Shown: positions 1-51,300 of the stretch, one piece after another | How positions within the stretch are numbered: position 1 is the first letter of the stretch | Layout of the letters: each line of letters starts with the position of its first letter | Source: Promethearchaeota archaeon | GTDB taxonomy: Archaea > Asgardarchaeota > Heimdallarchaeia > Hodarchaeales > Hodarchaeaceae | Direction: 5' to 3' | DNA length: 64,000 nt | Assembly (NCBI GenBank): GCA_048938105.1 | Contig: JBHLMN010000001.1 | Location: forward strand, 320,001-384,000 | Made by a program: the position numbers and the translations under genes | The notes under the pieces: model-generated | The model's input: the letters and a program-made list of their open reading frames with translations, nothing else | Databases searched by the model: none | What the model was told of the DNA's origin: nothing

Positions 1-212
1 ATAGCTTGATTCTCTACGTTCCAAGATATTCGAGCACGAATACGTCTTGGCTCTGGTTGTTCAACATTGATAAATCGCATACCAGTAATGAAGAAACCCG
101 TCCTATTCCGACCATCTTCATCTTTCAGTCCTTTCACATTGAGATGACTTTCTACATCAATTATGGGGTAGATTTCGATTTTTTTAACTTCATCGATTCG
201 GGTCATTCTCAT
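1..212 (-). CDS. Hypothetical protein, N-terminal part only (runs off the window start)
   Basis: Open minus-strand frame MRMTRIDEVKKIEIYPIIDVESHLNVKG... with no stop before position 1. In-frame ATGs at 218, 212 and 206, with AGGA upstream. Lies directly behind the aminotransferase. Not in the ORF track. Confidence 0.6.
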   Translation of the reverse strand, partial: MRMTRIDEVKKIEIYPIIDVESHLNVKGLKDEDGRNRTGFFITGMRFINVEQPEPRRIRARISWNVENQA

Positions 213-242
213 TCTCATTCCTAAATGCTGCATTCATATAAG

Positions 243-1469
243 TTAATTAATTGTTTTCAAGAAGGATTCAACATGATCTAAGGCTTCCCTCATCATTGCA
301 ACGTCTGGGAGTACAACAGATCGGAAATGGCCTTTTCCAAGCTCTCCAAAACCACTTCCAAAAACAAAAAGTACGCCTGTTTCTTGAAGAAGATCCAATA
401 CAAAACGGCGGTCGTTTATATCTTTGTCAATCCGAGGGAAAGCGTAAAAAGCCCCTCTAGGTGGAATAACAGACAATCCATTCATTTCATTAATTCTTTT
501 TGAGAAATAGGCAGCACGTTCTTTCAGTTTTCCAATGACTGCAGGTAGAAAATCCATTTCTTTGTTAATAATTTTACTTACTGCTACTTGTACTGGACTA
601 TTAGCACACAATCGAATCCGTGACTGCTTGGCTAATGCTTCCCAAAATTCTGAGTAGATTTCATCTTCATCTCTTAGTGTTGCCCACCCCAATCGCCAGC
701 CTGGGGAAAGTAACGTTTTTGAAATACCATTTAACTCTAAAATTGGTATATCGGTTAATGAAGCTGTTGATCGAAAATTACTCTCAAAAGTTAGTAAATC
801 ATAAATTTCATCAGAGATTAGTAAAAGATTGTGCTCACCTGCGAGATCTGTTATCTTTTTCACAATATTTTGAGAATAAACTGCTCCAGTGGGATTATTA
901 GGATTGATTATAATAATTGCTTGAGTTTTTGGAGATATTTTTCTTCGAATATCTTCTACATCAGGCTGCCATTCTTTTGATTCTTGGGTATGATATTCAA
1001 TCGGCACAATATTATGATACTTAAAATATGATAAATATGGAGGATAAGAGGGAGAAGGGACTAAAACTTCAGTTCCAGCCTTTAAACTTGCAGATATGAA
1101 TGATATTGCTTCAGATACTCCTGATGTAACCAAGATCTTACTAGGGTCTAGGTTTGTTCCCCAAAGTCGTCTTTGCCTTTTAACTATTTCTTCTCGTAAC
1201 GTAGGATCCCCTGTGGAATCGCTGTAGTAATTAGCCTTATCTTTTGTCACAGCTTCCAACAAAGCCTGTTTAAGAAAGTCAGGAGTATCAAAGTCAAATT
1301 TATCTGGATCACCAATGTTAAAGTAATAAAGCTTTTTTCCCTGTTCTTCTACCTTTTTGGCTAGAAGTACTATATCTCTAATTGCATATTTTATATTAAT
1401 AACATTAGGAGAGAGTTCCATACGGGTACCTTCTTTAAATGCGTACATGCATTTTTCTGTATCTAACAA
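243..1469 (-). CDS. PLP-dependent aminotransferase class I/II (alanine aminotransferase-like)
   Basis: YAIRD, NIGDP, NPNNPTG, SDEIYD and PLP-lysine motif GISKTLLSPGWRLGW. True start may be MELSPN. Confidence 0.93.
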   Translation of the reverse strand: MLDTEKCMYAFKEGTRMELSPNVINIKYAIRDIVLLAKKVEEQGKKLYYFNIGDPDKFDFDTPDFLKQALLEAVTKDKANYYSDSTGDPTLREEIVKRQRRLWGTNLDPSKILVTSGVSEAISFISASLKAGTEVLVPSPSYPPYLSYFKYHNIVPIEYHTQESKEWQPDVEDIRRKISPKTQAIIIINPNNPTGAVYSQNIVKKITDLAGEHNLLLISDEIYDLLTFESNFRSTASLTDIPILELNGISKTLLSPGWRLGWATLRDEDEIYSEFWEALAKQSRIRLCANSPVQVAVSKIINKEMDFLPAVIGKLKERAAYFSKRINEMNGLSVIPPRGAFYAFPRIDKDINDRRFVLDLLQETGVLFVFGSGFGELGKGHFRSVVLPDVAMMREALDHVESFLKTIN

Positions 1470-35995: not shown

Positions 35996-36895
35996 CTATT
36001 TGGAATCTTGATCTTTCTCTGTGATAACACGAGAAATCTCTGTTAAAGAATCTGTAAGTTTATTCTCGCCTTCCTCTTCTTCAATGATTTCTATCACATT
36101 AGAAACCGTTTTAAAAATGAAGTGTAAGTCTTTTACCTTAAATTCTACCTCCTCTTCTTCAAGTCCTGTTGGTAATGAAAATTCAGCCCAGATCTCAGTT
36201 CCAGAAAAACCTGTAAATGCAGGAGAGTTTTGGAGCTCTTCTTCTACTAAAACAGAGTCTTTCAATGTAAGATTCTTAAATTTCAGGTTGATAAAGCTAC
36301 CCTCAATATCTATGTCTACTTCAAGCCCATAAGATTCCGTTAAAGTTTCAACAATTGAACGTAACATACTAATGCTGTGAATACTAGTCTCTTGAGCATT
36401 TATCAAGCATAAATCCAGTTTTGGCCAGAGAAGAAATAGTTGGTCTCGTAAAAAATGGGTTTCAATAATTTGATCCATACTCCCCATAGGAAAAACCTCC
36501 TTTCCCTTTATTATTGTTCGCTTAAGAAGGTCTGAAGCTGAACGGCGAGTAGATGTTTGTTTTTCATGAATTATCTTCCAATAATCATCAATATAAACAT
36601 AAACATCAGGAAGGAGGGGTTCACCCTCCTGAAACGTTCTCATAAGGCCTTTTATTCGTTGAGAATAACAAAACATTGGTATTTGTTTCTTAGGTTCACG
36701 CTTCAATAATAAGACATCTAAATAACGACGATCAGTACATTTAGGACGTAGCATGTTGACAACTTTATTATTTTGACATTTTTCAAGACAGAATAACCTT
36801 CGATCACGAACCATTTCTTCCCAAAGAGTAACCCCTGATATTAGATTTAAAGTCTCCATTGCTATTTTTGGGGCTTCCTCTTCGTTCCATTTCAT
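35996..36895 (-). CDS. Hypothetical protein (Cys-containing N-terminus, acidic C-terminus)
   Basis: 299-aa ORF with GGAG upstream; no family recognised. Confidence 0.6.
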   Translation of the reverse strand: MKWNEEEAPKIAMETLNLISGVTLWEEMVRDRRLFCLEKCQNNKVVNMLRPKCTDRRYLDVLLLKREPKKQIPMFCYSQRIKGLMRTFQEGEPLLPDVYVYIDDYWKIIHEKQTSTRRSASDLLKRTIIKGKEVFPMGSMDQIIETHFLRDQLFLLWPKLDLCLINAQETSIHSISMLRSIVETLTESYGLEVDIDIEGSFINLKFKNLTLKDSVLVEEELQNSPAFTGFSGTEIWAEFSLPTGLEEEEVEFKVKDLHFIFKTVSNVIEIIEEEEGENKLTDSLTEISRVITEKDQDSK

Positions 36896-37489
36896 CGCTT
36901 TTGGGATCTCCTTCTAGGACTGTTTGTGAGAAAAACTGAATAGATTACTTCTCTGTCGCTATATCGATTTTAGATGGTTCTACTTATATTAGGATCTATT
37001 TTTTTATTGATAAGATGTATGTGGATCTTTCAATATTTTAGGACACTTGCGTTATTAGATGTGTGATAATAGGTAGATGGTTTTATTGTTGAAATTATTT
37101 AGAATTTCTCTAATATTAACTAAATACAACTTTTCATAAAAATTTTGTCATATTCCAGTACCTTTTGTATGATGATTTAAAATTTCTAGTATAAGGGTAG
37201 AAATAAGGTAGAAATAAGCTTTTACAGTTAAGAGTTATTCAAAAGGAGGGCGACAAAAAAAGTTAACCAGTTTCTAAGGCCTTCTGAACAATAAGTAAAT
37301 GTAATTTCCCCCAAATTTTGTTAATTATTGAAGATATCTAGTAAAATTCTAATTAGAATCAAGAATTCGAAGCCTCAGAGTGCCTTTTATATAATTACTA
37401 GTGGGTTTAAGATGCTTTGCCCTATTAACTCTGGAAAAAATAAATATTTCCCTCTAATGTCCCATCCTTTGAAGAAATTCAGTTAGTTC

Positions 37490-37700
37490 TTCGATTATAA
37501 AAGATAGGTTATTAAAATTGATTGAGTTTTATTCAACTTTATTCACAGGAGGTCATCAACTAGCTCGTTACCGCCGCTAGTCTCCATCGTGTGGGATGTA
37601 ACCCGACATCCTCTATCCTGTCAGCGTTAACCGCGTTCAGGAATGCTTTTTTCATAATATTGTACGCGCCATTCACATCAGCATTAATTATAGTGCCTTT
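37490..37700 (-). ncRNA. Putative TnpB omega-RNA / element right end
   Basis: omega-RNAs are known to overlap the tnpB 3' end. Short stems after the stop (AGTT-gaataa-AACT; TTGAT...ATCAA). Boundaries are approximate. Confidence 0.35.
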
Positions 37701-38780
37701 CAGGGATTTGAATAGTCCTCTAGTAATTCTTCGGCCTAGGTATTTCCTATGGTGTTCGATTGACTCATTATCCAAAAAAGAACACTTGCTGGAAAAACTT
37801 TCCTCTTGTTTAATGACCATTATCCCCTGCTCTGCTGCTTTGTATTCCAGTTGTTGAATTAGCTTGTTATACGGAATGGAGACAAAATTCTGAGTGTTCT
37901 TTTTACCAATTTTGCAATTTTGCTTCCACTCGGGATTATACCCGATCACAATTGTTCCAATGTCATTCCTAACACAGTACTCAATGATTTTCTGGCTAGT
38001 CTTATGGAAAAATTCATTGATCTTTCTATTGCGTTTTATGGTCAACTTTTGCATAGTTTTCCCTGTCTTTATTCCCTGACGGTCATAGGTTGATTGAATT
38101 CGGGCGCGTTCTTTGTTATAGTATTGATTAATGGATTTGGCAATCCCACCTTTAATAACAAACGGTTTTAAACCATTGTTATTGACAGTAGTTATGAGAT
38201 TGCGAACCCCTATATCAATTGCAACGATTTTGTCTTTATTTAATGGTTTAGGACTGATTTCTTTCTGGTAGATCATTTCTACCACATAACCTACTCCTTT
38301 CGGAATAATTCGTACCTCTCTGATGTCAGTCCTATCAGGTAGTCTTGTTTTTATTTTCAAACCTACTTTTTTTGGAAATAACAGGAAATTATCTTTTAAT
38401 TTCACCTGTTGGTTGGTAAAAACCAACATAAACTCTCCATTCTTTGGTTTGTATCTAGGAGGATTCGGTCTTCCGTTAAATTTTGATTTGTCCTTCTTCC
38501 ATTCATTAATAGCTCCAAAAAAGGATTTCCAATTCCTATCAAGTATTTTTAAAACTTGTTGAGCTGTTTGAGCTGGAAGTAGGTGATAATTGTCTGAAGT
38601 TTTAAGAAGGTGATATAAAGAATTATACCGAATCCATTTATTATGATTGAAAAACTCTTGACGCACAAGATAGTTAGCCTCATTATAGAGATTTTTCGAT
38701 AAATGACATAAAAATCGTAATTGTGGACAGGATTTTAACCAAATTCGTTCAGTTCTGATAACGCTTTTGTATCTGCTCAC
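37560..38780 (-). mobile_element. tnpB: Solo TnpB RNA-guided endonuclease (IS200/IS605-IS607 superfamily)
   Basis: KNLYN, RuvC-I AIDIG, RuvC-II QEESFSSKC, RuvC-III NADVNGAYNI; no tnpA nearby. Confidence 0.92.
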
Positions 38781-39334
38781 GAATCATCCCTGAAAACGAT
38801 TATCATAATTTATAATACCTTAGCTTTTTAATCACCTAATTACCATTTCTTTCTTGTAAGAATGAGATTATAAACTAAATATGATTAAAATATCGGAAAT
38901 TATTTTAGAAAATAAGCATCAATTTTAATAATACTTTTAGAAGTCTTGAAGAATCAAAAATTTATCTATATTGAATCTTTTTAAAATAATATACTCTCAA
39001 CTAGAAATCATCTCAAGTTCTTAATCATGTGTCATCTTTTGGACGTTAAACGAGAATCCATCGATCATTCCTTATAATGTACGAAAGGTATCCAATAATA
39101 GGTACGTGATGTACTAGCTCTGCTGCATTGTCTATTTTTTGAGTAATCCAGCTTCATCAAACATCTTTCTTAACACTCTCTCCATCTCTACTCCAATTCT
39201 CTTGGCAAATCTTTCTGAAAATTTGTCAAAAAGAAGGTTAAAGTTTACACAAAAATGAAAAATGATAATTTATTGATAAAAATATTCCTCTATATAAATA
39301 CACAACCTTCTGTACAGTTACACTTTTATCATAT

Positions 39335-39919
39335 TTAATTTAGAGATTCTTCGTTACCTTTTGAATAATCTTCATCAAATTCATCTGGTTCCCAGTTGAA
39401 GTTCTTCATGAAAAGATGTCCTATATTTTGAGAACTTTGATCTTCATTATTCATCAAGTGAATTTCGTTTTTAGTATAGAAGAAAGCTTCCATATGTAAT
39501 ACAAAGAAATCTGTTCCAAATTCTCTAGAAAATTTATTTTTTGAATGCGTGACTATCAATAATACACCTATTCCACCAAAAGTTTTAACAAATTCTTCTA
39601 GAAGTTCCCTGTCCCAATAATCTATAGTATTTATTTGAATATCCCAAGAATGATCACCTTGTATAAAATAATTGTTATGAAAGATTTTGTTTTTAAAATG
39701 TCCAGGTTTTTTATTTTCTAGTAATTCAAGAGTCCTGAATTTAAAATAAAGTTCTATCCAATTATCTTTTTTATATTCTATTCCTTTCTTTTTTAGTAAA
39801 TGTATTGCTTCCCTACTCTCTTGAATTGGAGGAAGACATGGAGGAATAACCCCTGATGACCCATATTCATTAAATAATACTTCCGTGATCATTTCAGCTT
39901 CTTTTCGTGGTGAAAGCAT
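39335..39919 (-). CDS. Shortened paralogue of the adjacent restriction endonuclease-like protein
   Basis: MLSPRKEAEMITEVLFNEYGS aligns with MVSPREEAELLINVLFSEFGS; shared EAI, KxPGxFK, GxxSWDI and C-terminal FN..P..F..DY. Confidence 0.7.
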   Translation of the reverse strand: MLSPRKEAEMITEVLFNEYGSSGVIPPCLPPIQESREAIHLLKKKGIEYKKDNWIELYFKFRTLELLENKKPGHFKNKIFHNNYFIQGDHSWDIQINTIDYWDRELLEEFVKTFGGIGVLLIVTHSKNKFSREFGTDFFVLHMEAFFYTKNEIHLMNNEDQSSQNIGHLFMKNFNWEPDEFDEDYSKGNEESLN

Positions 39920-40023
39920 AATTATAACACACATTTCTGGTATTAATAGAATTTTAGTGATGACTACGCTTTTTAAAATCTATATTTAATAGAATTTGAA
40001 TATACTGCAATTTAGGAGAGGAA

Positions 40024-40782
40024 TTAATCTTTTTCTGGGTAATCATCTGTAAAATCTTTGGGGCGGTCATTAAACATCCAAGCTCCTATGTAACACTTCT
40101 CTGTTCTCATCTGTTGTATATCCAATTGATATTTACCTTTCCTTGGAGCTCCACTTGGTAGTCTCATACCTTCTTGGAAAGTTGGGTCAGCCCACCCTTT
40201 TTCAAGGCCTTGTTTTAAATCTTCAAGTGTTAAATAAAAACCTAAGATTTCACCAATAAGAAAAGCAGTCTTTCTTACCTTTCTTGGTCGTTCTTCATCG
40301 ATTCGTTGCTTTGTATATTCACTTGAACCACCTTTGAATTTTTCATGCCATCTTACAAAACTTCCATCCTTATCGTATTTAAAATGAGTCTTTCCAACTA
40401 ATAACCCGTAACCCTCATTCTTTTCCAAATAATTATCGAAGAACGATTTATCAACAAAAGGAACCTCTGGTGATTCATATCTTGATGATTTGAGACGAAT
40501 ATCCCATGAAAATTCTCCTTTAATTAAAAATAACCTTTTCCATGGATCAAAATGTTTGAATTTTCCTGGGAGTTTAGAATCTAGAAGGTGACGTAAATAA
40601 TGTTTAACATAGAAACTTGGCCATTCTAAATGTTTATATGGGAGATTATTATTTCTTAACCATTGAATTGCTTCTTTTCCATCTACAAGTGGAGGTGAAC
40701 GAGATTTATTAGTATCAATTGATCCAAATTCACTGAAAAGAACATTAATTAATAGTTCTGCTTCCTCTCGTGGTGAAACCAT
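40024..40782 (-). CDS. Putative type II restriction endonuclease
   Basis: Overlaps the MTase 3' end by 34 nt. DGKEAIQWLR...EW..FY and WHEKFKGG...RK resemble MTase-associated REases; catalytic motif is only loosely visible (WDIRLK). Confidence 0.6.
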   Translation of the reverse strand: MVSPREEAELLINVLFSEFGSIDTNKSRSPPLVDGKEAIQWLRNNNLPYKHLEWPSFYVKHYLRHLLDSKLPGKFKHFDPWKRLFLIKGEFSWDIRLKSSRYESPEVPFVDKSFFDNYLEKNEGYGLLVGKTHFKYDKDGSFVRWHEKFKGGSSEYTKQRIDEERPRKVRKTAFLIGEILGFYLTLEDLKQGLEKGWADPTFQEGMRLPSGAPRKGKYQLDIQQMRTEKCYIGAWMFNDRPKDFTDDYPEKD

Positions 40783-41810
40783 TCCAACATCCCACGTTCT
40801 TTGTTCTTAACTTCAGAAATGTATACTTCATAAGCTTTTGGATACTTCCTTTTTAGATCATCAATTGACGGTAGCAAAGTTTTATACATACGGTAGTCTC
40901 TTCCTAAAGGTGTTATATCCAAATTATGTTCTATAATAGAACGCATCTTGTCATTAATCTCAAAACCAATAAAATGACGATAGTTAGCTATAGCTGCCTC
41001 TGCTGTAGTGCCATTGCCCATAAATGGATCTAAAATTATATCTCCAGGTTTTGAACTAAAATCAATACATCTCTGAATCAATTGAGCAGGAAGTTTAGTG
41101 CCGTTTTTCTTCTCCCCTGGGGAATAATCTCGTTTGATATCCCAAACATCAGTTGGATAATGTTCGATTTTGTTGAAATAATATTCTTTAGGGTCTTTTG
41201 CAAGAAACAATATATGATAATGACTAGTTACAAACTTAATTTTTGTGTAAACCCCGAATTGATATTGCCAAATTAAATGATTTAACACAATTAAACCTGA
41301 ATTTCTTAGGGATCTGAGAATATCCTCTAAATTTGTCCAGCCACTAAAAATATACGCAGATGAGGTTGGTTTCATGAGACGAGGAAGTTGAGAAATCCAC
41401 TGTTCTGTAAAATCATTATAATTACTTTGTATTTCTTTATAATCTTCAACTACAAAATCAGAATCCCGATTATAAATAGACTCTTTTCCTGAAAAATCAA
41501 GTCCAAAAGGAGGATCAGCAATGATTAAATCGATACTTTCTTTTGATAAAAGCTGCATTCCTTTAATACAATCTTGAAAATATGTTTGATCTATTTTAAA
41601 AGATCCAATTTGTTTAACTTGTTTGTTAAAAAGGTTTAATGCTTGGGACTTATCCCAATCTTCACTGGGGCGGAATCTAAAAGCAGCTAAACCAGGAATA
41701 TATTTATTCTTCCGTTTTCTCTTCTTCTCTTTGTTATATTGTATCATTTCTTGAGAACTCTGAGAAACCATACCTGTAGCCTTCAAATAAAACTCTCCCT
41801 TATTTATCAT
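40749..41810 (-). CDS. Site-specific DNA methyltransferase, N4-C/N6-A, beta class
   Basis: Motif IV ADPPF precedes motif I LDPFMGNGTT; IGFEIN. Confidence 0.93.
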   Translation of the reverse strand: MINKGEFYLKATGMVSQSSQEMIQYNKEKKRKRKNKYIPGLAAFRFRPSEDWDKSQALNLFNKQVKQIGSFKIDQTYFQDCIKGMQLLSKESIDLIIADPPFGLDFSGKESIYNRDSDFVVEDYKEIQSNYNDFTEQWISQLPRLMKPTSSAYIFSGWTNLEDILRSLRNSGLIVLNHLIWQYQFGVYTKIKFVTSHYHILFLAKDPKEYYFNKIEHYPTDVWDIKRDYSPGEKKNGTKLPAQLIQRCIDFSSKPGDIILDPFMGNGTTAEAAIANYRHFIGFEINDKMRSIIEHNLDITPLGRDYRMYKTLLPSIDDLKRKYPKAYEVYISEVKNKERGMLEWFHHERKQNY

Positions 41811-42225
41811 TAATAAAGTTTTTCAGATGAATTGTATTTTTTGATCAGAGAAGCTCTATTTAACCAAAAAGCGTTTCTGTTAGCTACATATATATAATGG
41901 GTTGATCTAAGGGATAGATCGAGCTAAAAGACCCGAGACGTCATTAGTGTATAAAGATGATGATTCTAGATTATTATAGAGGAGTTTCTATTATTTCTAA
42001 TTCTTCAAACAAAAAAATCACTTTATTTTTCTAATATAAAAGAAGATATTACGTAAATAACATCTATTTAAAACTAAAAGTAACCATTTCATTTCCTAAA
42101 AGAGGTAGTTGACTTTACATCAACAATTAAATAAAGTATATACAGTCTTACATCCAATATAACTCAAAATTAATCTAGATTTTAGGTAGATATGAGAAAA
42201 ATTAGATTATAGATTTCCACATATA

Positions 42226-42612
42226 ATGGAAAAAAAACTGGAATCTATTCTGAATTGGAATGAGGATCTTTCTTCAATCCTAGAAATTATCAATCCAGAT
42301 CGTTGGAAAGTTTTTCAGGTATTATATGTTAAAAGAGAAAATGAAGAACAATTTCCTTATTTACAAATTACTCCTAAGCAATTTCAATATTTTATTGAAG
42401 TTCACGCAAAATATCGCCCTGTGGCAGAAGATATAGAACTTATGAGAGGATCATATCTTATGCTTGATCCTCAATGTCGGTTTTTTCAGAATTCAACAGG
42501 TGAATTGGTTTTTAGTCAGTTAATTCTAGATATTGGTATTATCCCTGCAAGTGTAGAAGTGGGATGGGATTTTAGAAAATTCATTAAACGTGGAGGAATT
42601 TACAAATGGTGA
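42226..42612 (+). pseudogene. Viperin (RSAD2-like) C-terminal fragment lacking the radical-SAM core
   Basis: LNWNED, NPDRWKVFQVL, MRGSYLMLDPQCRFF, KFIKRGGIYKW match the viperin C-terminal half; no CxxxCxxC upstream. Confidence 0.8.
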
Positions 42613-42737
42613 TTCAAGAATAGATTTGCCCAATCTGTGGTAATGTTATCGTTTTTATTGAAAGCTAAATGAGAAGAATATTTAAATGGTTTCGATTGTT
42701 GAAGAAACACCAGCAGTTGCTTGTTTTTTGAGATATT

Positions 42738-43511
42738 CTATGAATGTGGAAGTGGTAATGAATTCCCATTATTTCTCAAAAGTATTATTAATTCTTCTAG
42801 CGTGTTTATAATAAATGATTCCACCATCCCCATAATTTTTTTGAAACATTGAACCATTTCTTTGTCTTGAAACCCTGGATTAAAAAATGTGTCGCGTAAA
42901 ATCAATTGGGTTTGAGCAGAAAAAGAATAAGTTAATTGTGAGAAAGAAGGAGGAGTAAGATTTCCATAATTTGCGATATCCTCATGTGTTCCATGATTTC
43001 TAATCTTAATTAAGACATAATACCATCCATTAATATTCCAAGGTTCTATACCTATTTTTGTCTCCCATAGATTTCTTAGATTACATGATGTAGGTCTAGA
43101 TAGAAGTTTTGTAACAACATCACGAGGGTAATAGATGTCATGAGACATTGTATACTCGAACATCTCAACAATTAACTTTGAAATAATATCTATAGCGCTT
43201 TTAAGATTGTATGTTAGATTATCAATAGAAAAAACAATGATGAAAGGAATTTGATGTCTTTCTTTAATCTGAATTTTCCCCAACGTGATGGGAAATTGTT
43301 GTTTCACGTCAGGGTATTTTTTTGAAACATCATTCCAACGATAAATCAATGAAAGATCGACTTGATTAAGTAAACTGAAAAAAATTTCTGCAGCAGCCAC
43401 TTTTTGGTTTATTGAAAATAGATTATTCGTTATTTTTTCTTTTACAGGATGATCTAATGTTGATATTCCAGTAATAATATTGATTAGATCCTCTACTTTT
43501 TGTTGTAACAT
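42738..43511 (-). CDS. HEPN domain protein (Cthe_2314-like)
   Basis: LKSAIDII helix and RxxxxH motif RNHGTH (42984-43001); start overlaps the upstream stop (TAATG). Confidence 0.7.
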   Translation of the reverse strand: MLQQKVEDLINIITGISTLDHPVKEKITNNLFSINQKVAAAEIFFSLLNQVDLSLIYRWNDVSKKYPDVKQQFPITLGKIQIKERHQIPFIIVFSIDNLTYNLKSAIDIISKLIVEMFEYTMSHDIYYPRDVVTKLLSRPTSCNLRNLWETKIGIEPWNINGWYYVLIKIRNHGTHEDIANYGNLTPPSFSQLTYSFSAQTQLILRDTFFNPGFQDKEMVQCFKKIMGMVESFIINTLEELIILLRNNGNSLPLPHS

Positions 43512-46500
43512 TAACTTTCCTCCTCCAGAGATTCTTTTTCACGCTTTAAATCATATTTAACTTCTTGGATGAGTATTTGTCTTAGTTGAATTCCCCATTC
43601 ATCATCTCCAGGTTTATAATCTTCAAGAACTTTCTTTTTTCGCATTATTTCATGCATTCCACTAGTTCCTGTCACAAAACTCGCAATTATACTTTTCTTA
43701 ACTTCGGATTCTCCTTTTGAAGCCATGAAAACATGTTTAAATACTTCTAGAAGATTTTGATCAAACTTATACCAGTTCATAATCGTAGGTATCATCCATA
43801 AATTTTTTACCTGTAAAGAATTAATGAAATCTATCAAAAGCGATTTACCGAGATCAGTAAGAGGTTGTTCTACTCCAACTGAACCTGTAACAAGTTTTTG
43901 GAGTAACTGTGATATTATAATCTGTATTGAATAATCGGAAAGATTGTTTTTCAAATAATTCAATACTCTCCTAATATTTTCCTTTTGTATATCATTTGGT
44001 AATGAATTTACTTTGTCAAAATAAAGATGAAATCTCGGAATTGCGGAATAACCAGATCTTTGAAATTCTTCAGGATTTTCTTTCAAAAATTCAATTCTAT
44101 TTATGAAAAATTCTGTAGTGAAACATAAATGAACTGGAACTAGTTTTGAAAAAATGAAATCTATTTCGTAAGAAGCAAATCGTTCAAGATCAGGTATACT
44201 GATTAATTGATGAATTAGAATCTTTAAAAATGAGATATGTTCCTCTTCCCATGTTTCAAGTCTAGTATACAAATCAAAGATAGCTAAAATTACTTCTTCT
44301 TGTGATATATCCATATTTGTGAGAATTTCAAAGCAATAATTGGGATCAGATTTCCACCAAAGACTGAGAACTCCAATTATTTTTGATTGATAAATTTCAG
44401 GTTTTTCTTTTCTAATTTTACTAATGTTGCTTTTTAGAAGTTCTATATTTGTATCATGGATTTTTCTGGCACGAAAGGAATCTAATACTACTTCAATACC
44501 GTAAGGTGAGTTTAAAGAATATAAATATTCAATAAAATTATTAAATTGTTCCATGCGTGATATTCTTAATCCTGCAAGTATGTAACCAAATAAAGTGGGA
44601 TCAGGAAACTTTGATTTCTCTATTATTAATTTTATGGCTCCAATTGAATAATCGGGCAACATTTCACCCATATTCAATAAAAACTGCCCAAGAATAAAGT
44701 TCAGAGATTTATATGATTCGGATTTCGTGAATTTTACAAGAAACTCAACAAATTCTTCTTCTGAAAAGGAATTTATAATTTTTAATTGTACAGACCACTC
44801 AGATTTGCTTAATGTATGAAAAGAAAATCTTAAATCTTTCAAGATCTTAAGGAAGTTTAAATTTATATTTGAACTTATAATTTGGTTTAATTCATTTAAA
44901 GGATCGTCCCATTTCGTTGAATTCTTGCTTATTGTTTTTACGATAGAATTTATTCCCTTCACTATTGATAAAGAAGATGTGTTATCTTTAATTGTGTCGA
45001 TAAACGAGAAAATCATCTTAATTTCGGTATCAGTTGGGAAATCAGATGTTCCTAACTCATTAGAGAGATTATAATTCCAATGAAGTGTGGAACTCAATTC
45101 TGTGAGTCCTTTTTCAATATAACTCTCCTTATCAGTATTCCTTATAATATTAAGAAGTGTATCCAAGGATTTTTCCCGTAATTTTTCAATCGTAGGAGAT
45201 TTAGTTATTTTTCCAGTTTTTATTATAGCTTTATTCAAATCTTCTGGAGATATATATATTTCCCTAAATTCGATATTTAGAACCACACATAATAATTCAA
45301 AAATAATTTCCGCTTCTTTTGAGGAACTTAACTGGTTGAATGTTTTTTCAACCCATTCTAACGCTTTAAATTGATATTTCAACGGTTTCCTGGTATTATA
45401 CTCAAATTGTGATTTAAGAAGACTGATTGCCTTATCAGACACATATTTTGCTGAATCAAGACATAGGGGATAAAGTAAACTTAGAAATCTTTCGAAATAA
45501 AGGAAATGATACATAATATCATTAAGAACGTCAATTATACTTTTTTTATAGATGTCAGAACTTATTCCTGATGATTTGAAGCTTTCTTCATCTAATGATT
45601 CAGATTTACTGATTAAATTCTGCACCATCTCCAATGTAAAATCTGGTTTATAAAAAGCAATAACTTTGAGATAATCTAGGATATCAATTCTTTCTAGAAT
45701 GTTACCATCTTTACAAACTTTTTCGATAAAATCGAGAAAAGGATGTAGCATCGAAGTTTGAAAGTCAGTTTGAAGTTTGTAGTCAATTTTAATTATATTT
45801 CTTAGAACATTAAGCGGTCTAGCTTTTAAAAGTTCTAATATTATCCCTTGCCATGTTTTTGAAATTTTCCCAGTTTCATATTGAATATTGCTCCAAATGA
45901 CTATATCTGAGAGAATGGGAAGGTTGAATCGAATTTTACCTAAACTAATTCTAACTATTCTTTCTTCAGAAAATTGCTGTAATAAGTTCTCAAACCTGAT
46001 GACATTTAGATCTGCTAATTCAGCAATTTTTTCAAAAAGTTGATTATCATATACAGGAAGTGGCTCAACAAGCGCAATTATGGTTAAAATATTTTTTTGA
46101 GTTGCATCAAAATCCTTGGTGTATCTTTTAGCCAACTTTTCATAAAGATTCGCTGAAGGAAATGCAAGGTCATGTTTTTTTAAATCAATAAGGTATAGAA
46201 GGATACCAGGATTTCCTCGAGCTTGATTCCAGTACATTTGAAGTAGATAATCATCGGTAATATTAAAATTTTCACGGAGATGATGTGTGAAGTCTTTTCT
46301 AGACAATCTTTTTAACTCATGATCTTTAATTTCCAAATTCAATTCAATAATTTCGTAAATTACCTTCTGTTTTGATGCTGTATCGCAAAAAAGGAGAATT
46401 TTGATCTTTTGGTCTTCTTGAAAATTTCCTAATATGCGAACAAAGGTACGTAAGTTGTTGAAATGTTCTGTATCGTCTAAAATGATAAGAACATTTTTAT

Positions 46501-47254
46501 CAAAATTAATTTCACTAAAATGCTGATCTAACGATTCTGTGTCGGAAAGTAAATGATAAACATTCCAATTTTTTTTTTCGCTTATTTTTTTCGAAATTTC
46601 TATTCCTAATCGGCTTTTTCCTATTCCTTTATTTCCAAATACAACTAAGAGTAAACCACTGTCTTCAAGAAACTCTATAATAGATTTAACATCATTTTTT
46701 CTTCCATAAATTGGTTTACCATAAATAATATCATTCAATGATGAAAGGTATTCACTAGAAGGAATGAAAGCTGGTTGATATTGGAAAAAATATCGTGATC
46801 TGAGAAGTGGATATTTCATCAAAAGATTCTCAATGTCTTTTAACTCCCAGATTCTAAACTTAATATCTGACTGGTTTGAAAATAATTCATCTAATTGTTC
46901 TCTATCAGATTTCGTCAGGTTAACGTTTATTAAATAGATTATAAAATTCAATTCTTTAGAAATTAAATTCTTAGAATGTTGTTTTATAGCATTCTTAATT
47001 CTTTTTCTTCTTTGTTCTAATCCAAATTCAAAAGAAATAGTTTTGACCTCAAATCTCCACATTCCTTTTTCCTTCAAATACTCCCCTTGATAATAAGCAT
47101 CAAAACCACCATCTTTCAATTTACCATATGAAATCACATCAGGAGAGATCTCATGTTTAAGCAAATGAATACATAATTCTTCGAACTTATCCCAGTTAAT
47201 TCTCTCCCATTTGAAGATCGGTTTAGGATCCCACACATATTGAGCTTCTTTCAT
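43511..47254 (-). CDS. Avs-like antiviral STAND NTPase with N-terminal Mrr-like nuclease
   Basis: FEELC..LL...DGGFDA...EVK nuclease, Walker A GNKGIGKS, Walker B LIILDD, GxP (GNPG), long helical C-terminus. Confidence 0.82.
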   Translation of the reverse strand: MKEAQYVWDPKPIFKWERINWDKFEELCIHLLKHEISPDVISYGKLKDGGFDAYYQGEYLKEKGMWRFEVKTISFEFGLEQRRKRIKNAIKQHSKNLISKELNFIIYLINVNLTKSDREQLDELFSNQSDIKFRIWELKDIENLLMKYPLLRSRYFFQYQPAFIPSSEYLSSLNDIIYGKPIYGRKNDVKSIIEFLEDSGLLLVVFGNKGIGKSRLGIEISKKISEKKNWNVYHLLSDTESLDQHFSEINFDKNVLIILDDTEHFNNLRTFVRILGNFQEDQKIKILLFCDTASKQKVIYEIIELNLEIKDHELKRLSRKDFTHHLRENFNITDDYLLQMYWNQARGNPGILLYLIDLKKHDLAFPSANLYEKLAKRYTKDFDATQKNILTIIALVEPLPVYDNQLFEKIAELADLNVIRFENLLQQFSEERIVRISLGKIRFNLPILSDIVIWSNIQYETGKISKTWQGIILELLKARPLNVLRNIIKIDYKLQTDFQTSMLHPFLDFIEKVCKDGNILERIDILDYLKVIAFYKPDFTLEMVQNLISKSESLDEESFKSSGISSDIYKKSIIDVLNDIMYHFLYFERFLSLLYPLCLDSAKYVSDKAISLLKSQFEYNTRKPLKYQFKALEWVEKTFNQLSSSKEAEIIFELLCVVLNIEFREIYISPEDLNKAIIKTGKITKSPTIEKLREKSLDTLLNIIRNTDKESYIEKGLTELSSTLHWNYNLSNELGTSDFPTDTEIKMIFSFIDTIKDNTSSLSIVKGINSIVKTISKNSTKWDDPLNELNQIISSNINLNFLKILKDLRFSFHTLSKSEWSVQLKIINSFSEEEFVEFLVKFTKSESYKSLNFILGQFLLNMGEMLPDYSIGAIKLIIEKSKFPDPTLFGYILAGLRISRMEQFNNFIEYLYSLNSPYGIEVVLDSFRARKIHDTNIELLKSNISKIRKEKPEIYQSKIIGVLSLWWKSDPNYCFEILTNMDISQEEVILAIFDLYTRLETWEEEHISFLKILIHQLISIPDLERFASYEIDFIFSKLVPVHLCFTTEFFINRIEFLKENPEEFQRSGYSAIPRFHLYFDKVNSLPNDIQKENIRRVLNYLKNNLSDYSIQIIISQLLQKLVTGSVGVEQPLTDLGKSLLIDFINSLQVKNLWMIPTIMNWYKFDQNLLEVFKHVFMASKGESEVKKSIIASFVTGTSGMHEIMRKKKVLEDYKPGDDEWGIQLRQILIQEVKYDLKREKESLEEES

Positions 47255-47534
47255 TAACTTTCTTTAGCTCCTATGAGTTGTTAAATGTTATTTCTCTTTT
47301 TAGAGGGCCTAAAAACTTATCTCAGACTTTCCTCTTATACTTTATACGTTTTCCCATCCAATAAGCCTCATTTTAACTATTATTCTTCATCTAACCTAAG
47401 ATTTTTCTTCATTTTAACATATAAAAATGAGACATTGAATTCTCAATCTCATGTATGTTTGTAGTTATTTAAGTATATACTTGAAATTCAAAGTATAAAT
47501 ACTACTAATCGCGTTAAAGAGGTAGAGGTACAAT

Positions 47535-47864
47535 TCAGGGTAGTGAAATTCCTTTTTTTATCCTAATGTCACTATAATCTCTCTTTTTCATTCGATATAG
47601 GTAATAGAAGATAAATAATGTTCCTAGTCCAAAAAAAAGCAAAGCCAAGTCAGTAGTAACAATTAAATAATCAGTAACTTCATTTACAATTCCTGTCACA
47701 CTGATGAAAGCAAAAAAACCAGATATAGCATACATAATAGATACAAAATGCCTTAACCGAACAAGATAAAGATGTTCGTGCTTTAATGTCATAATTGCCG
47801 CAGTAATTGTTATAGCATTTAACAAACCTATATTGATGTTAAGAAGAATACCTAAATCAGTCAA
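47535..47864 (-). CDS. Small membrane protein (~3 TM)
   Basis: Three hydrophobic segments and a basic tail; 12-nt gap to the upstream gene. Confidence 0.6.
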   Translation of the reverse strand: MTDLGILLNINIGLLNAITITAAIMTLKHEHLYLVRLRHFVSIMYAISGFFAFISVTGIVNEVTDYLIVTTDLALLFFGLGTLFIFYYLYRMKKRDYSDIRIKKGISLP

Positions 47865-47876
47865 AAAAATTCTCTT

Positions 47877-48107
47877 CTATGCTTTAGTCATTGCCTTTAA
47901 AATCACTAAAATCCCGATGAATAAAAAAACTACTAATAGTACTTCCAAAGGGATACCCAGAGTCTCCACAACTCCAGAAAGATCAGTTGTAACTCCCTGA
48001 AAGAAGGCATTGAAATCAAATCCTTCAGTTTGTACAAACAAAACTGAAGCAACAATAAGAATTATTATCCCTAAGCCGAATAAATAGAAATGATGACTCC
48101 ATTTCAA
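47877..48107 (-). CDS. Small membrane protein (2 TM)
   Basis: Two hydrophobic helices; GGGAG upstream. Confidence 0.55.
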   Translation of the reverse strand: MKWSHHFYLFGLGIIILIVASVLFVQTEGFDFNAFFQGVTTDLSGVVETLGIPLEVLLVVFLFIGILVILKAMTKA

Positions 48108-48300
48108 GTTTTAATTTCTCCCATGTTTATTTTATCTCACATTAAGTTTTGAATTGGATATATTCTACAGTAGTAATCTCTCATCTTACGTTATCTCGAA
48201 ATTGTCTTCAGAAATCAAGAATCAGTTCCAAATATTTTTCATGTTCCCAAATTATTTTTACGATTTTTCCCAATTTTTTTCCATCTTGATATTTACATAA

Positions 48301-51300
48301 TTAGCCGCACTTAGAATAACCACAAACTCGACAAAGAATGCATCCTTCACTATGCTCTACAATATTCCCACATTCTGGACATTCTGGTCGTAAACCTGAA
48401 GTGGTATGAGATAGATAAATTGTATTTCCCCCAGAACTAAAATCATTTTCTTCGGTTTCCCTAACTTGAACACTCTCATTCTTATGATTATTAACGCTAT
48501 AGCGGTTTATGAAACGTTCTACAGCCTTAGCTACTGCATCAGCGCAAGACAATATTGGTCCTTCTGAACCAAATGTAGGAGAAGGGCAACGAATGGATTT
48601 AAGTTGCATGATGATTTCATCTGGTTCAATCCTACTTCGAAGCGCGAGTGAAATTAAACGACCCATTGATTCAATATGTGATGCAACACAACCCCCAGAT
48701 TTACCCAGTGACAAAAACAGTTCAGCTAATCCCTCCTCATCCTCATTGATAGTTATAAATAAGTTTGTTCCACAACCCACACGAACTCGTTCAGTGACTC
48801 CACGGGTAACATCTGGTCTATACCTAGGTTTCTTTGATGAAATAACCTTATCTGATTTGGTTTTTACTTCGTTGGTACCTTTCTTAGACAAAACATCATA
48901 AGAGCGAGAACCAGAACGGTATACTGTTAGCCCTTTACATCCCAATTTGTAAGCCAACATATAGGCATTATTAATATCAGCCACAGTTGCTTCCTTGGGA
49001 AAATTGATGGTATTATGGGACACGATACCGTTTACGAGGTACGTATGAGAATTCTTAACCTCAACATCAAATAGTGGAATATCTCCAATGTCTTCGATGG
49101 ATGTTACTTTCTCAACAGCAGCAATAATTCTAAGATTAAGAGATTTCGCTACAGTATTCCAACAGTACTCTCGTTTTGATTGTTTTAACCATCTTAAATT
49201 GCTATAATACTCGTCTGAAGTTGGAAGAGTTTTTTCTTGGACTTCATTGGGATCAATCAAGACAAAATATTTTTTATAATGTGGTGGCGACCTTTTATGT
49301 TCTTCAATTGGTGTTATTATACCTTGCAGTTCATTACTAATTTCAACATAATAATAAATACCATATCCTTTGACTTTTTTCTGGCCTTGGTATATATATG
49401 GGAGACCAAAACTTCTAAGTAATTCTGAAATCTGATAAGCTAATCGTTTAGACATACCCCCATATACAACTAATCCTCTATTTTTTTTAAGATAACCATC
49501 GAGTGTAACACCTTCTAAGAACGCTTTCTTTTCTTCGGCGCTACCCTCGAGTATTTGTTTCGGAACATGTTTATTTCTTGCTTTGACTCCAATTAAACTT
49601 CTGACAAATCGAACTAAAGCTCTTGATGTAATAACGTGAGAAATCACATTATTTCGTTTATCTTTTATAAGTCGGGGTTTTTCCTCAAAAATCTCCATTG
49701 AGAGAATATCAAAAAGATCCCCTACATTACTATTATTCTCAACAAGAGCTACTGCTCCAGTACTCTCTACCATAGATCCATCTGCAGCTAGCATTCCTAG
49801 CCAACGTGCGAGGAGTGCATCCATCTTCTTTGGTAATTGTACTATATTAGAACTAGTTTTAAATTCATGATTAAAATCAATCGTTTTTCCCCCTTCGGTG
49901 TGAATAGGTGGAGAATTGTGTCTGACAACTACTAGATCCCCCTTTTTTAGATTTGAAAGTGTTTTCCATCCACTAGAAGTCATAATGTTATGAGTAGTTT
50001 TTGCACCAATAATTTTAGATCCATTTCTAAGCATAATTTCAACAGAAGAATGTTTTCCTGCACTATAATGAGAAATAACCTTTTTTAATTGTCCTTCTTT
50101 ACCATCAATAACATACAAATCAGGTAATGGGCTATCGAATTCATCAACACCATTGGCAAATCCGCATTCTGCTACTGGAACTAAACCTTTGTTAGTTGGC
50201 AAAAGAGTATCTCCAGCTATACACTTACTCACAGCATTGTCCACTCCTGATGTTTGGAACGCTGCTTGCATTCGAACATGCCACTCTGGGGAGATATCGT
50301 GTGCTGTAACAAAGGTTTGACGTATTTCCTCAGGTATTTCTGCCATTTCTGCAATTGAACCTGTTGCTGCGATTTTTTCCATCAGGTCTTGCGAATAAAA
50401 ACCCTGGCTTTTTGCTATCTCAACGAAAAAAGGATACCCTTCCACTAAAATATCGTCATCTAAAACTCGCCGTTCATAAGTTAGCATAAATAATGGTTCG
50501 ATTCCACTTGAACAGCCTGCTATGATCGATATGGTACCAGTTGGAGCTATTGTAGTTAATGTGGCATTTCGCATCATTGGATACTTTTCAGCAAAAATAC
50601 TCTTGTTAAAATTAGGAAATGACCCCCGTTCTTGGGCAAGCTTCTGCGACTCACGAATAGCAATTGTACGAATGTAGCTCATTACACGTTTAGCCAATTC
50701 TATACCTTTTTCTGAATTATAGGGGATTCCAACTTTAATTAATAAATCCGCGAATCCCATAATTCCAAGACCTATTTTTCGGTTTCTTTTCGTCATTTCC
50801 TCAATTTCAGGCAAAGGAAAACTTGAAACATCAATTACATTGTCTAGAAATCGCACTGCTAAGGTTATAATCCGTTCAAGATGATCATAATCTATATGAT
50901 ATTTTAGTGGATCAATAGGATCCTTTTTAACCATCTTACTAAGATTTATAGAGCCTAGATTGCATGATTCGTACGCTAACAGAGGCTGTTCTCCGCAGTT
51001 CTGTGTTTTGACGAATTTGATCTTCGTCCTCTCTCCAACTTGTTCTCCAAACCCTCCAATGAAAAAACAATGAAATTCATCCACTGTACCGTTATAAACA
51101 TCCTCCTTTCCTAGATATTTAACGTTTACAACTTTATCATTATACATGGTTGAATGTTCTTTAAGCTCTCTATAATTTTTAAATCCAAATTTTGTTCCTA
51201 ATCTGAACGGGATAGAAGATTGTTTGCATGAGTTTTCCCATTCCTTTTTAAAAGGTTCTCTGTTTAACTTTTCTTTCAATTCAAGATAACATAGTATTTG

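Follow-up and report, generated by a model that had tools for sequence, protein, structure and literature searches.

The 64,000 nucleotides analysed here (hereafter the window; positions 320,001 to 384,000 of contig JBHLMN010000001.1, assembly GCA_048938105.1, from an Asgard archaeon of the family Hodarchaeaceae) contain two overlapping genes on the reverse strand, P0001 and P0002, which probably form a functionally coupled, horizontally acquired two-gene defence module of the Avs-like (antiviral STAND/NLR-like) type. A preliminary description of this DNA, made from the letters alone, had reported open reading frames (ORFs) of 1247 and 257 amino acids (aa) at this place, and both exist exactly as described (Table 1). 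It had also placed a TAATG overlap at 43509-43513, which direct reading of the sequence confirms: the P0001 stop codon TAA (43513-43511) and the P0002 start codon ATG (43511-43509) have one base in common. A Shine-Dalgarno-like GGAGGAGG lies at 43519-43526, within the 3' end of P0001 and 7 nt 5' of the P0002 ATG. Judged from its sequence, this layout is the one expected for translational coupling. Moreover, an open frame of 774 nt at about 30% G+C is not expected by chance.

We then asked what the large protein is made of. An exhaustive HMMER search of 1.84 billion representatives returned a P0001 family of 273 proteins at E <= 1e-3, and of 77 at E <= 1e-10; its members are mostly 1250-1310 aa long, and many alignments run from residue ~15 to beyond residue 1100. 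The conserved modules were read from an alignment of 34 members, the columns of the N-terminal motifs being represented in 25 to 34 relatives. The N-terminal domain of about 160 aa carries E35, then D48 and D52 in a GKDGGIDA-like stretch, followed by WRF(Q/E)xKF (residues 66-72) and T/N109-110. Among 25 sequences, D48 and K71 are invariant, while D52 and Q69 (Glu in P0001) are nearly so. The PD-(D/E)xK-type nuclease that had been proposed for this N-terminus is supported by its motif, with D48, D52 and E69-x-K71 all on invariant or nearly invariant columns. The motif GDGGIDG..VQAK of Escherichia coli Mrr lines up with the same stretch of the family, as a likeness of motif only (hhalign probability 6.8%). 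In addition, 14 of the 34 family members are matched at their N-terminus by the restriction-endonuclease (REase) part of the PADLOC profile Aga_REase-TIR-PNTD1-PNTD2, with E-values down to 3.7e-11, and three by the LmuA profile of Lamassu. Sequence searches of the PDB with P0001, P0002 and a profile of the N-terminal domain gave no real match. According to these results, the N-terminal domain of P0001 is predicted to be restriction-endonuclease-like, and Mrr-like at the level of its motif.

The second module is a STAND NTPase. The preliminary description had pointed out STAND NTPase motifs, and P0001 has Walker A, Walker B and GxP, all well conserved in the alignment of 34 relatives: G212 and K213 are invariant, D260 and P349 nearly invariant, and the consensus of the last motif is GxPL. 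P0001 alone gives sub-threshold matches to nSTAND5, nSTAND6 and AAA_16 over residues 182-291 (18.9 bits for nSTAND5, against a cut-off of 34). The Pfam matches are more numerous in the 14 Bacteroidota-type members (alignment A3), with NB-ARC in 10, nSTAND3 in 12 and AAA_16 in all 14; in one relative (P0035) NB-ARC scores 35.1 against a cut-off of 23.5, and nSTAND3 30.8 against 27.2. The remaining C-terminal part, which we take for the sensor, is homologous across the family, relatives aligning over about 1000 residues at 20-25% identity, and in some members it has weak HEAT/TPR-like Pfam matches. Standalone ORFs of about 255 aa in other Asgard genomes (G286:C56, G268:C2, G274:C236 and G396:C83) match positions ~790-1050 of the STAND profile, in its C-terminal part, with E-values of 1e-6 to 4.5e-11. 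Such ORFs may be pieces of the sensor repeats that stand on their own, or proteins related to these repeats.

The small protein P0002 had been credited with an intact RNHGTH motif, and this motif is present at residues 171-176. The HEPN motif is defined as R-x4-6-H, the arginine being followed by a polar residue (N, D or H; PMC3710099). The pattern RN...H arises in 1.4% of composition-preserving shuffles of P0002. Searches with the protein gave noise-level matches only in 399 genomes of the same phylum, and nothing significant in Pfam, NCBIfam and PADLOC. A single-sequence AlphaFold2 prediction was unusable (predicted local distance difference test, pLDDT, 34). The protein is present in the ESM Atlas with a model of its own (predicted template modelling score, pTM, 0.74), whose structural neighbours are a DUF8310 cluster (template modelling score, TM, 0.71 over 228 residues), a Bacteroidota cluster of 283-aa proteins (TM 0.68), a Cthe_2314 HEPN cluster (TM 0.54) and HepT (0.41/0.69). 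PasA/DUF6586 and NTase_sub_bind are also found there and, together with HepT, all belong to the HEPN-type group. Taken together with the model of its Bacteroidota counterpart and the database name of one partner, both presented below, the RN-x3-H motif and the Cthe_2314 and HepT neighbours make P0002 look HEPN-like.

The pair is kept in distant relatives. We surveyed one genome per species with the Bacteroidota-type subgroup and obtained 38 loci, nearly all from Bacteroidota. Of these, 22 carry, after the STAND gene and in the same orientation, a gene of a single partner family (A4); two of the 22 partner genes are partial because of a contig end or a split. The intact A4 partners have 272-289 aa, and their starts lie about 4-10 bases inside the 3' end of the called STAND ORF. 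Nineteen of them could be aligned, at 25-39% identity to the first row, and E136, E143, K148, R207, N208, H212 and G213 are invariant, the motif reading LRNxFIHGY. A different partner stands on a soil-type metagenome contig (L091), where a 1339-aa family member overlaps by 4 nt a gene for a 269-aa protein with RNHFVH at residue 169. At a further locus (L076), a 287-aa ORF downstream of the STAND gene carries RNYAQH. RN...H lies at a relative position of 0.63-0.72 in three partner groups (P0002, the L091 protein and the A4 family), with a chance of 1.4-3.2% per protein, and such a recurrence of the motif is hard to explain without a common function. Beyond the motif, these three groups have no significant mutual similarity by profile search or hhalign; HEPN domains typically diverge this strongly in sequence (PMC3710099). 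The nearest ESM feature clusters of P0002 are also those of the Bacteroidota partner (257-aa and 259-aa Pseudomonadota clusters, and clusters containing Cthe_2314), and one partner bears the UniRef name 'Cthe-2314-like HEPN domain-containing protein'.

The loci lacking the standard partner are of several kinds. At two of them (L052 and L077) the STAND gene is followed by unrelated housekeeping neighbours, a TetR gene and a response-regulator gene, and at L080 by a gene on the opposite strand and no partner; at L083 an overlapping gene encodes a 703-aa protein of no recognised family, and at L078 a 315-aa one. Five of the loci without a standard partner (L074, L075, L077, L078 and L083) have a STAND protein whose C-terminal third has diverged from the query. 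This hints that the presence of the partner co-varies with the C-terminal part of the STAND protein; the hint is weak, as related loci have features in common anyway. In Chryseobacterium (L068, L069 and L070), two family STAND genes of about 1290 aa stand in tandem with the partner after the second, and in L069 this partner gene is broken into two frames, probably a sign of decay. No relative was found in the viral contigs searched, the plasmids searched gave NTPase-level matches only, and the A4-partner profile found nothing in 401 sampled Gammaproteobacteria. Upstream of P0001, a 109-aa ORF (47535-47864) has no family match and no counterpart upstream in relatives, and was therefore left out of the module.

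From the alignment of 19 A4 sequences, AlphaFold2 gave a model of the Bacteroidota partner with a pLDDT of 82.8 and a pTM of 0.84. It contains long helices at residues 48-74, 113-146, 183-211 and 251-278, with a beta-hairpin after the first of them and a short helix inserted between the second and the third. E136 and E143-x3-K147/K148 lie in helix 113-146, and RN-x3-H ends the third long helix (183-211). HEPN domains have been described as four-helix bundles in which helix 3 ends in the motif, helix 2 bears an acidic Ex3[KR] and an insert separates these two helices (PMC3710099), and the predicted structure matches this description. Its best matches among solved structures are HEPN domains, none of which reaches E <= 0.001 (Foldseek against the PDB). 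Co-folding of residues 600-1278 of the Bacteroidota STAND protein with the partner returned the verdict 'no answer', and is evidence neither way.

Table 1. Features of the gene pair and of the surrounding insertion (positions in the window)
Feature	Position	Strand	Size or residues	Description	Basis
P0001	43511..47254	-	1247 aa	REase-like domain, STAND NTPase and long C-terminal part taken as sensor	ORF
N-terminal PD-(D/E)xK (restriction-endonuclease-like) domain	46757..47221	-	residues 12-166	E35, D48, D52, E69-x-K71, N110	
STAND NTPase module	46175..46729	-	residues ~176-360		
Walker A	46613-46636	-	residues 207-214	GNKGIGKS	
Walker B	46472-46489	-	residues 256-261	LIILDD	
GxP motif	46208-46216	-	residues 347-349	GNP	
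C-terminal part	43514..46174	-	~880 aa	Taken as helical-repeat sensor	Homology, weak Pfam
Coupling junction	43509..43526	-		GGAGGAGG + 7-nt spacer + TAATG	Sequence
P0002	42738..43511	-	257 aa	HEPN-like partner	ORF
RNHGTH	42984..43001	-	P0002 residues 171-176	R-x4-H HEPN motif, Asn after Arg	Sequence
Viperin fragment	42226-42612	+	128-aa ORF	C-terminal third; convergent to HEPN gene	
N6/N4 DNA methylase	40749-41810	-	353 aa		Pfam domain
Small ORF	40024-40782	-	252 aa	Overlapped by methylase; no Pfam match	
Small ORF	39335-39934	-	199 aa	Downstream; no Pfam match	
TnpB (OrfB_IS605)	37560-38780				Pfam domain
Variable insertion with module	36896..48300		11.4 kb		Flanking-gene spacing in same-genus genomes

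The module stands in an insertion. The gene flanking it on one side encodes a 299-aa protein (35996-36895) and that on the other is the ribonucleotide reductase gene (3' end at 48301); they are separated by 0.4-0.55 kb in at least seven genomes of the same genus, and by 11.4 kb in the window. Elsewhere in the genus the interval measures 2-9 kb and holds P-type ATPases, a Na/H exchanger and genes of no known family. The interval is thus a variable spot within the genus. The G+C content of the insertion is 28-30%, as compared with 33-37% in its flanks, and neither P0001 nor P0002 was found in 20 same-genus genomes. A dedicated defence hotspot at this interval was considered and rejected, given the transporters and genes of no known family that sister genomes hold there, and a search for flanking repeats of the module met short AT-rich chance repeats only. 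Besides the TnpB gene, the insertion contains a DNA methylase gene that, together with two small ORFs (39335-41810), is probably a restriction-modification unit. The ORF convergent to P0002 matches residues ~177-301 of solved viperin-like enzymes (E 2e-20) and is without the N-terminal radical-SAM core. The window also holds an Endo_dU gene, and the ribonucleotide reductase in it is a multi-intein one; both point to an archaeal host.

In the same phylum, a single protein related over its full length to the NTPase and C-terminal part of P0001 was found, in genome G252 (E 2e-17 over about 1000 residues). At its locus (L015; G252:C257, 2698-7518), a DUF4062/TIR-like N-terminus is joined to the STAND protein, and a gene for a 156-aa TIR protein and one for a 141-aa HEPN protein of the PF05168 type lie directly upstream, the genes being separated by 5 nt and 16 nt. 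The locus may represent a further STAND module whose effectors are encoded separately. A 1256-aa Asgard protein (L016; G240:C82, 4351-8121, reverse strand) is related to P0001 in its REase-like N-terminal domain only (27% identity, E 2e-8), with no NTPase similarity to P0001 and no Pfam match, and the gene upstream of it encodes a Csa3/HFX_2341-like Rossmann protein.

The proposal of a coupled Avs-like defence module, which we consider the probable one, builds on what was observed directly, namely the intact nuclease motifs, the STAND NTPase, the coupling of the two genes, the recurrence of the pair in distant relatives and the fact that the island is accessory. If P0001 works in the way of Avs3, Avs4 and Avs8, its C-terminal part would bind a viral protein, and NTP-dependent oligomerisation would then join the N-terminal nuclease domains and lead to DNA cleavage. 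The HEPN partner, made together with the STAND protein and held or recruited by it, would be a second or backup effector and cleave RNA once activated. The outcome would be abortive infection. One may also imagine another relationship, in which a HEPN toxin is silenced by the STAND protein and set free once the sensor is inhibited or degraded by a virus. In PARIS and Lamassu, a separate nuclease is sequestered by an ATPase sensor, and translational coupling would yield matched amounts of the STAND protein and its partner. HEPN RNases are common toxins that require a neutralising partner (PMC3710099). However, the STAND protein has a conserved nuclease effector of its own, for which a pure antitoxin has no need, and no partner without a STAND gene occurs in the loci examined, although these were picked via the STAND gene. 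We therefore regard such a toxin-antitoxin or guard arrangement as unlikely.

Several observations weigh against the proposed Avs-like module. P0002 is without a detectable sequence homologue: a word search of 5.8 billion proteins, in which the 'longer' and 'shorter' length options were not included and whose scope thus leaves aside fused or split forms of P0001 and P0002, returned P0002 alone. P0001 likewise found only itself in this search. The A4-partner profile gives P0002 0.4 bits in hmmsearch and a probability of 0.9% in hhalign. On the side of the nuclease, Pfam Mrr_cat matches the N-terminus of neither P0001 nor its family members, and P0001 itself is without the PADLOC REase match; the 'Mrr nuclease' of the preliminary description is supported by its motif and a REase profile, and not by the Pfam family. 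About one third of the relatives are without a partner, the only two-gene analogue to have been characterised, Avs8, can do without its small protein in defence against lambda (10.1101/2025.07.02.662641), and other genomes of the genus carry transporters and no defence genes in the variable interval. The absence of any sequence homologue of P0002 from two very large databases would agree with an ORF that is not a real gene, or that is adjacent by chance alone. Yet a frame of 257 codons that stays open at about 30% G+C, its GGAGG site and stop/start overlap, the ESM Atlas model (pTM 0.74) and the same positional arrangement in relatives all oppose this view, and we hold it to be highly improbable.

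The STAND-nuclease may also act alone, as Avs4 and Avs8A do, the HEPN-like gene being a dispensable accessory or modulator that, for example, tunes activation or widens the range of triggers. Avs8B is not needed for defence against lambda despite its place in the operon (10.1101/2025.07.02.662641), and the REase motifs are still intact at the family loci without a partner, where the STAND protein can apparently exist alone. However, the catalytic-type residues E, E, K, R, N and H are invariant over 19 partners that have only 25-39% identity to the first row of their alignment, and RN-x3-H is kept in three partner groups that have no other detectable similarity. Such a pattern argues for selection on an active site. 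We consider a purely accessory role of the HEPN-like gene rather unlikely.

It could also be that the module is not antiviral at all: the STAND NTPase might have a housekeeping or regulatory task, with a partner that processes RNA, or the two genes might be a selfish addiction module of the island. Many STAND clades are unlinked to defence, 198 of 589 being classed as defence-associated (10.64898/2026.01.04.697583), and transporters occupy the same interval in sister genomes. On the other hand, Avs proteins have as their signature a nuclease effector joined to a STAND NTPase and a long sensor part. The patchy distribution of the genes, absent from the 20 same-genus genomes searched, their low G+C content and their neighbourhood (TnpB, a methylase and a viperin remnant) do not fit such functions either, and we deem a role outside defence quite unlikely.

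Avs and NLR-like sensors are usually treated as single proteins with a fused effector. A conserved partner that retains an RNase-type active site would mean that part of these sensors govern a further output in trans. Such a role of the partner would suggest a function for unexplained small genes such as Avs8B, and would give a context to the Cthe_2314-like and DUF8310 HEPN proteins, which have had none assigned so far. The pair also adds a candidate immune module to the Asgard archaea, a group of interest for the origin of eukaryotic immunity about whose defence systems little is known. We further speculate, more tentatively, that the pair represents an unnamed and widespread class of NLR-like sensors in which one switch governs two nucleases, a fused DNase and a separate, coupled HEPN RNase; in this class, the RNase gene would diverge so fast that RN-x3-H alone is left, and the module would have been exchanged between Asgard archaea and bacteria resembling Bacteroidota. 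If this is true, a prokaryotic sensor would control a separate effector, in a manner loosely comparable to the sensor/helper logic of eukaryotic NLRs.

The pair had not been recognised as a named system, and no PADLOC model matches either gene. With homologues that keep the pair, a small protein that looks HEPN-like and no matching system model, the preliminary reading of the two genes is supported. PADLOC 2.0.0 had no match to P0001, P0002, the pairs of three relatives or the 34 family members, except for the domain-level profiles REase, LmuA and PDC. Avs4 was reportedly described by Gao et al. in 2022 as a single gene that encodes an Mrr-like nuclease, a STAND NTPase and a TPR sensor. Its domain order is that of P0001, and so is the presumed logic, from binding by the sensor to oligomerisation and activation of the nuclease. 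However, Avs4 acts alone, whereas the P0001 family has a conserved partner gene and no PADLOC Avs match. The closest known layout, which the preliminary description did not mention, is that of Avs8/PD-lambda-4, a two-gene operon like P0001/P0002. In Avs8A, a Mrr-type nuclease at the N-terminus is joined to a P-loop STAND NTPase and to a sensor made of repeats; the protein binds the HK97-fold capsid protein and cuts DNA, and Avs8B, encoded after it, is small and without recognised homology (10.1101/2025.07.02.662641). Avs8 is gammaproteobacterial, whereas the P0001 family was found in Bacteroidota and one archaeon, and the two are likened by layout only: no membership at the level of sequence was seen with PADLOC 2.0.0, a version that probably includes PD-Lambda-4 models.

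On the side of the partner, Cthe_2314 HEPN (PF18730) and DUF8310 (PF26979) are all-helical proteins of about 250-290 aa with R-x4-H, and are ESM Atlas neighbours of both P0002 and the Bacteroidota partner. The Pfam profile PF18730 matches neither P0002 nor the 19 Bacteroidota partners. For Cthe_2314, a survey of HEPN domains published in 2013 gives 'None detected' for both architectures and operons, so that no link with STAND proteins was described (PMC3710099), and no mention of DUF8310 was found in the literature searched. Among the STAND clades NB-ARC (PF00931), nSTAND3 (PF20720) and nSTAND5 (PF25199), relatives pass the cut-offs of the first two, whereas P0001 remains below every one, and no single Pfam STAND family claims its clade. 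The protein of genome G252 is homologous to P0001 in the NTPase and C-terminal part, and a HEPN gene is adjacent to it, as the HEPN-like P0002 gene is to P0001; the N-terminal effector differs, and the HEPN gene in G252 is of the 141-aa PF05168 type and placed upstream. A census of STAND proteins from 2026 presents Avs proteins as single polypeptides, and its main text is without the words 'operon', 'two-gene' or 'co-encoded' (10.64898/2026.01.04.697583). Altogether, the Avs-like class itself is well known, and the sources searched do not describe a conserved HEPN partner, the extreme degree to which it has diverged or its occurrence in an archaeon of Asgard type.

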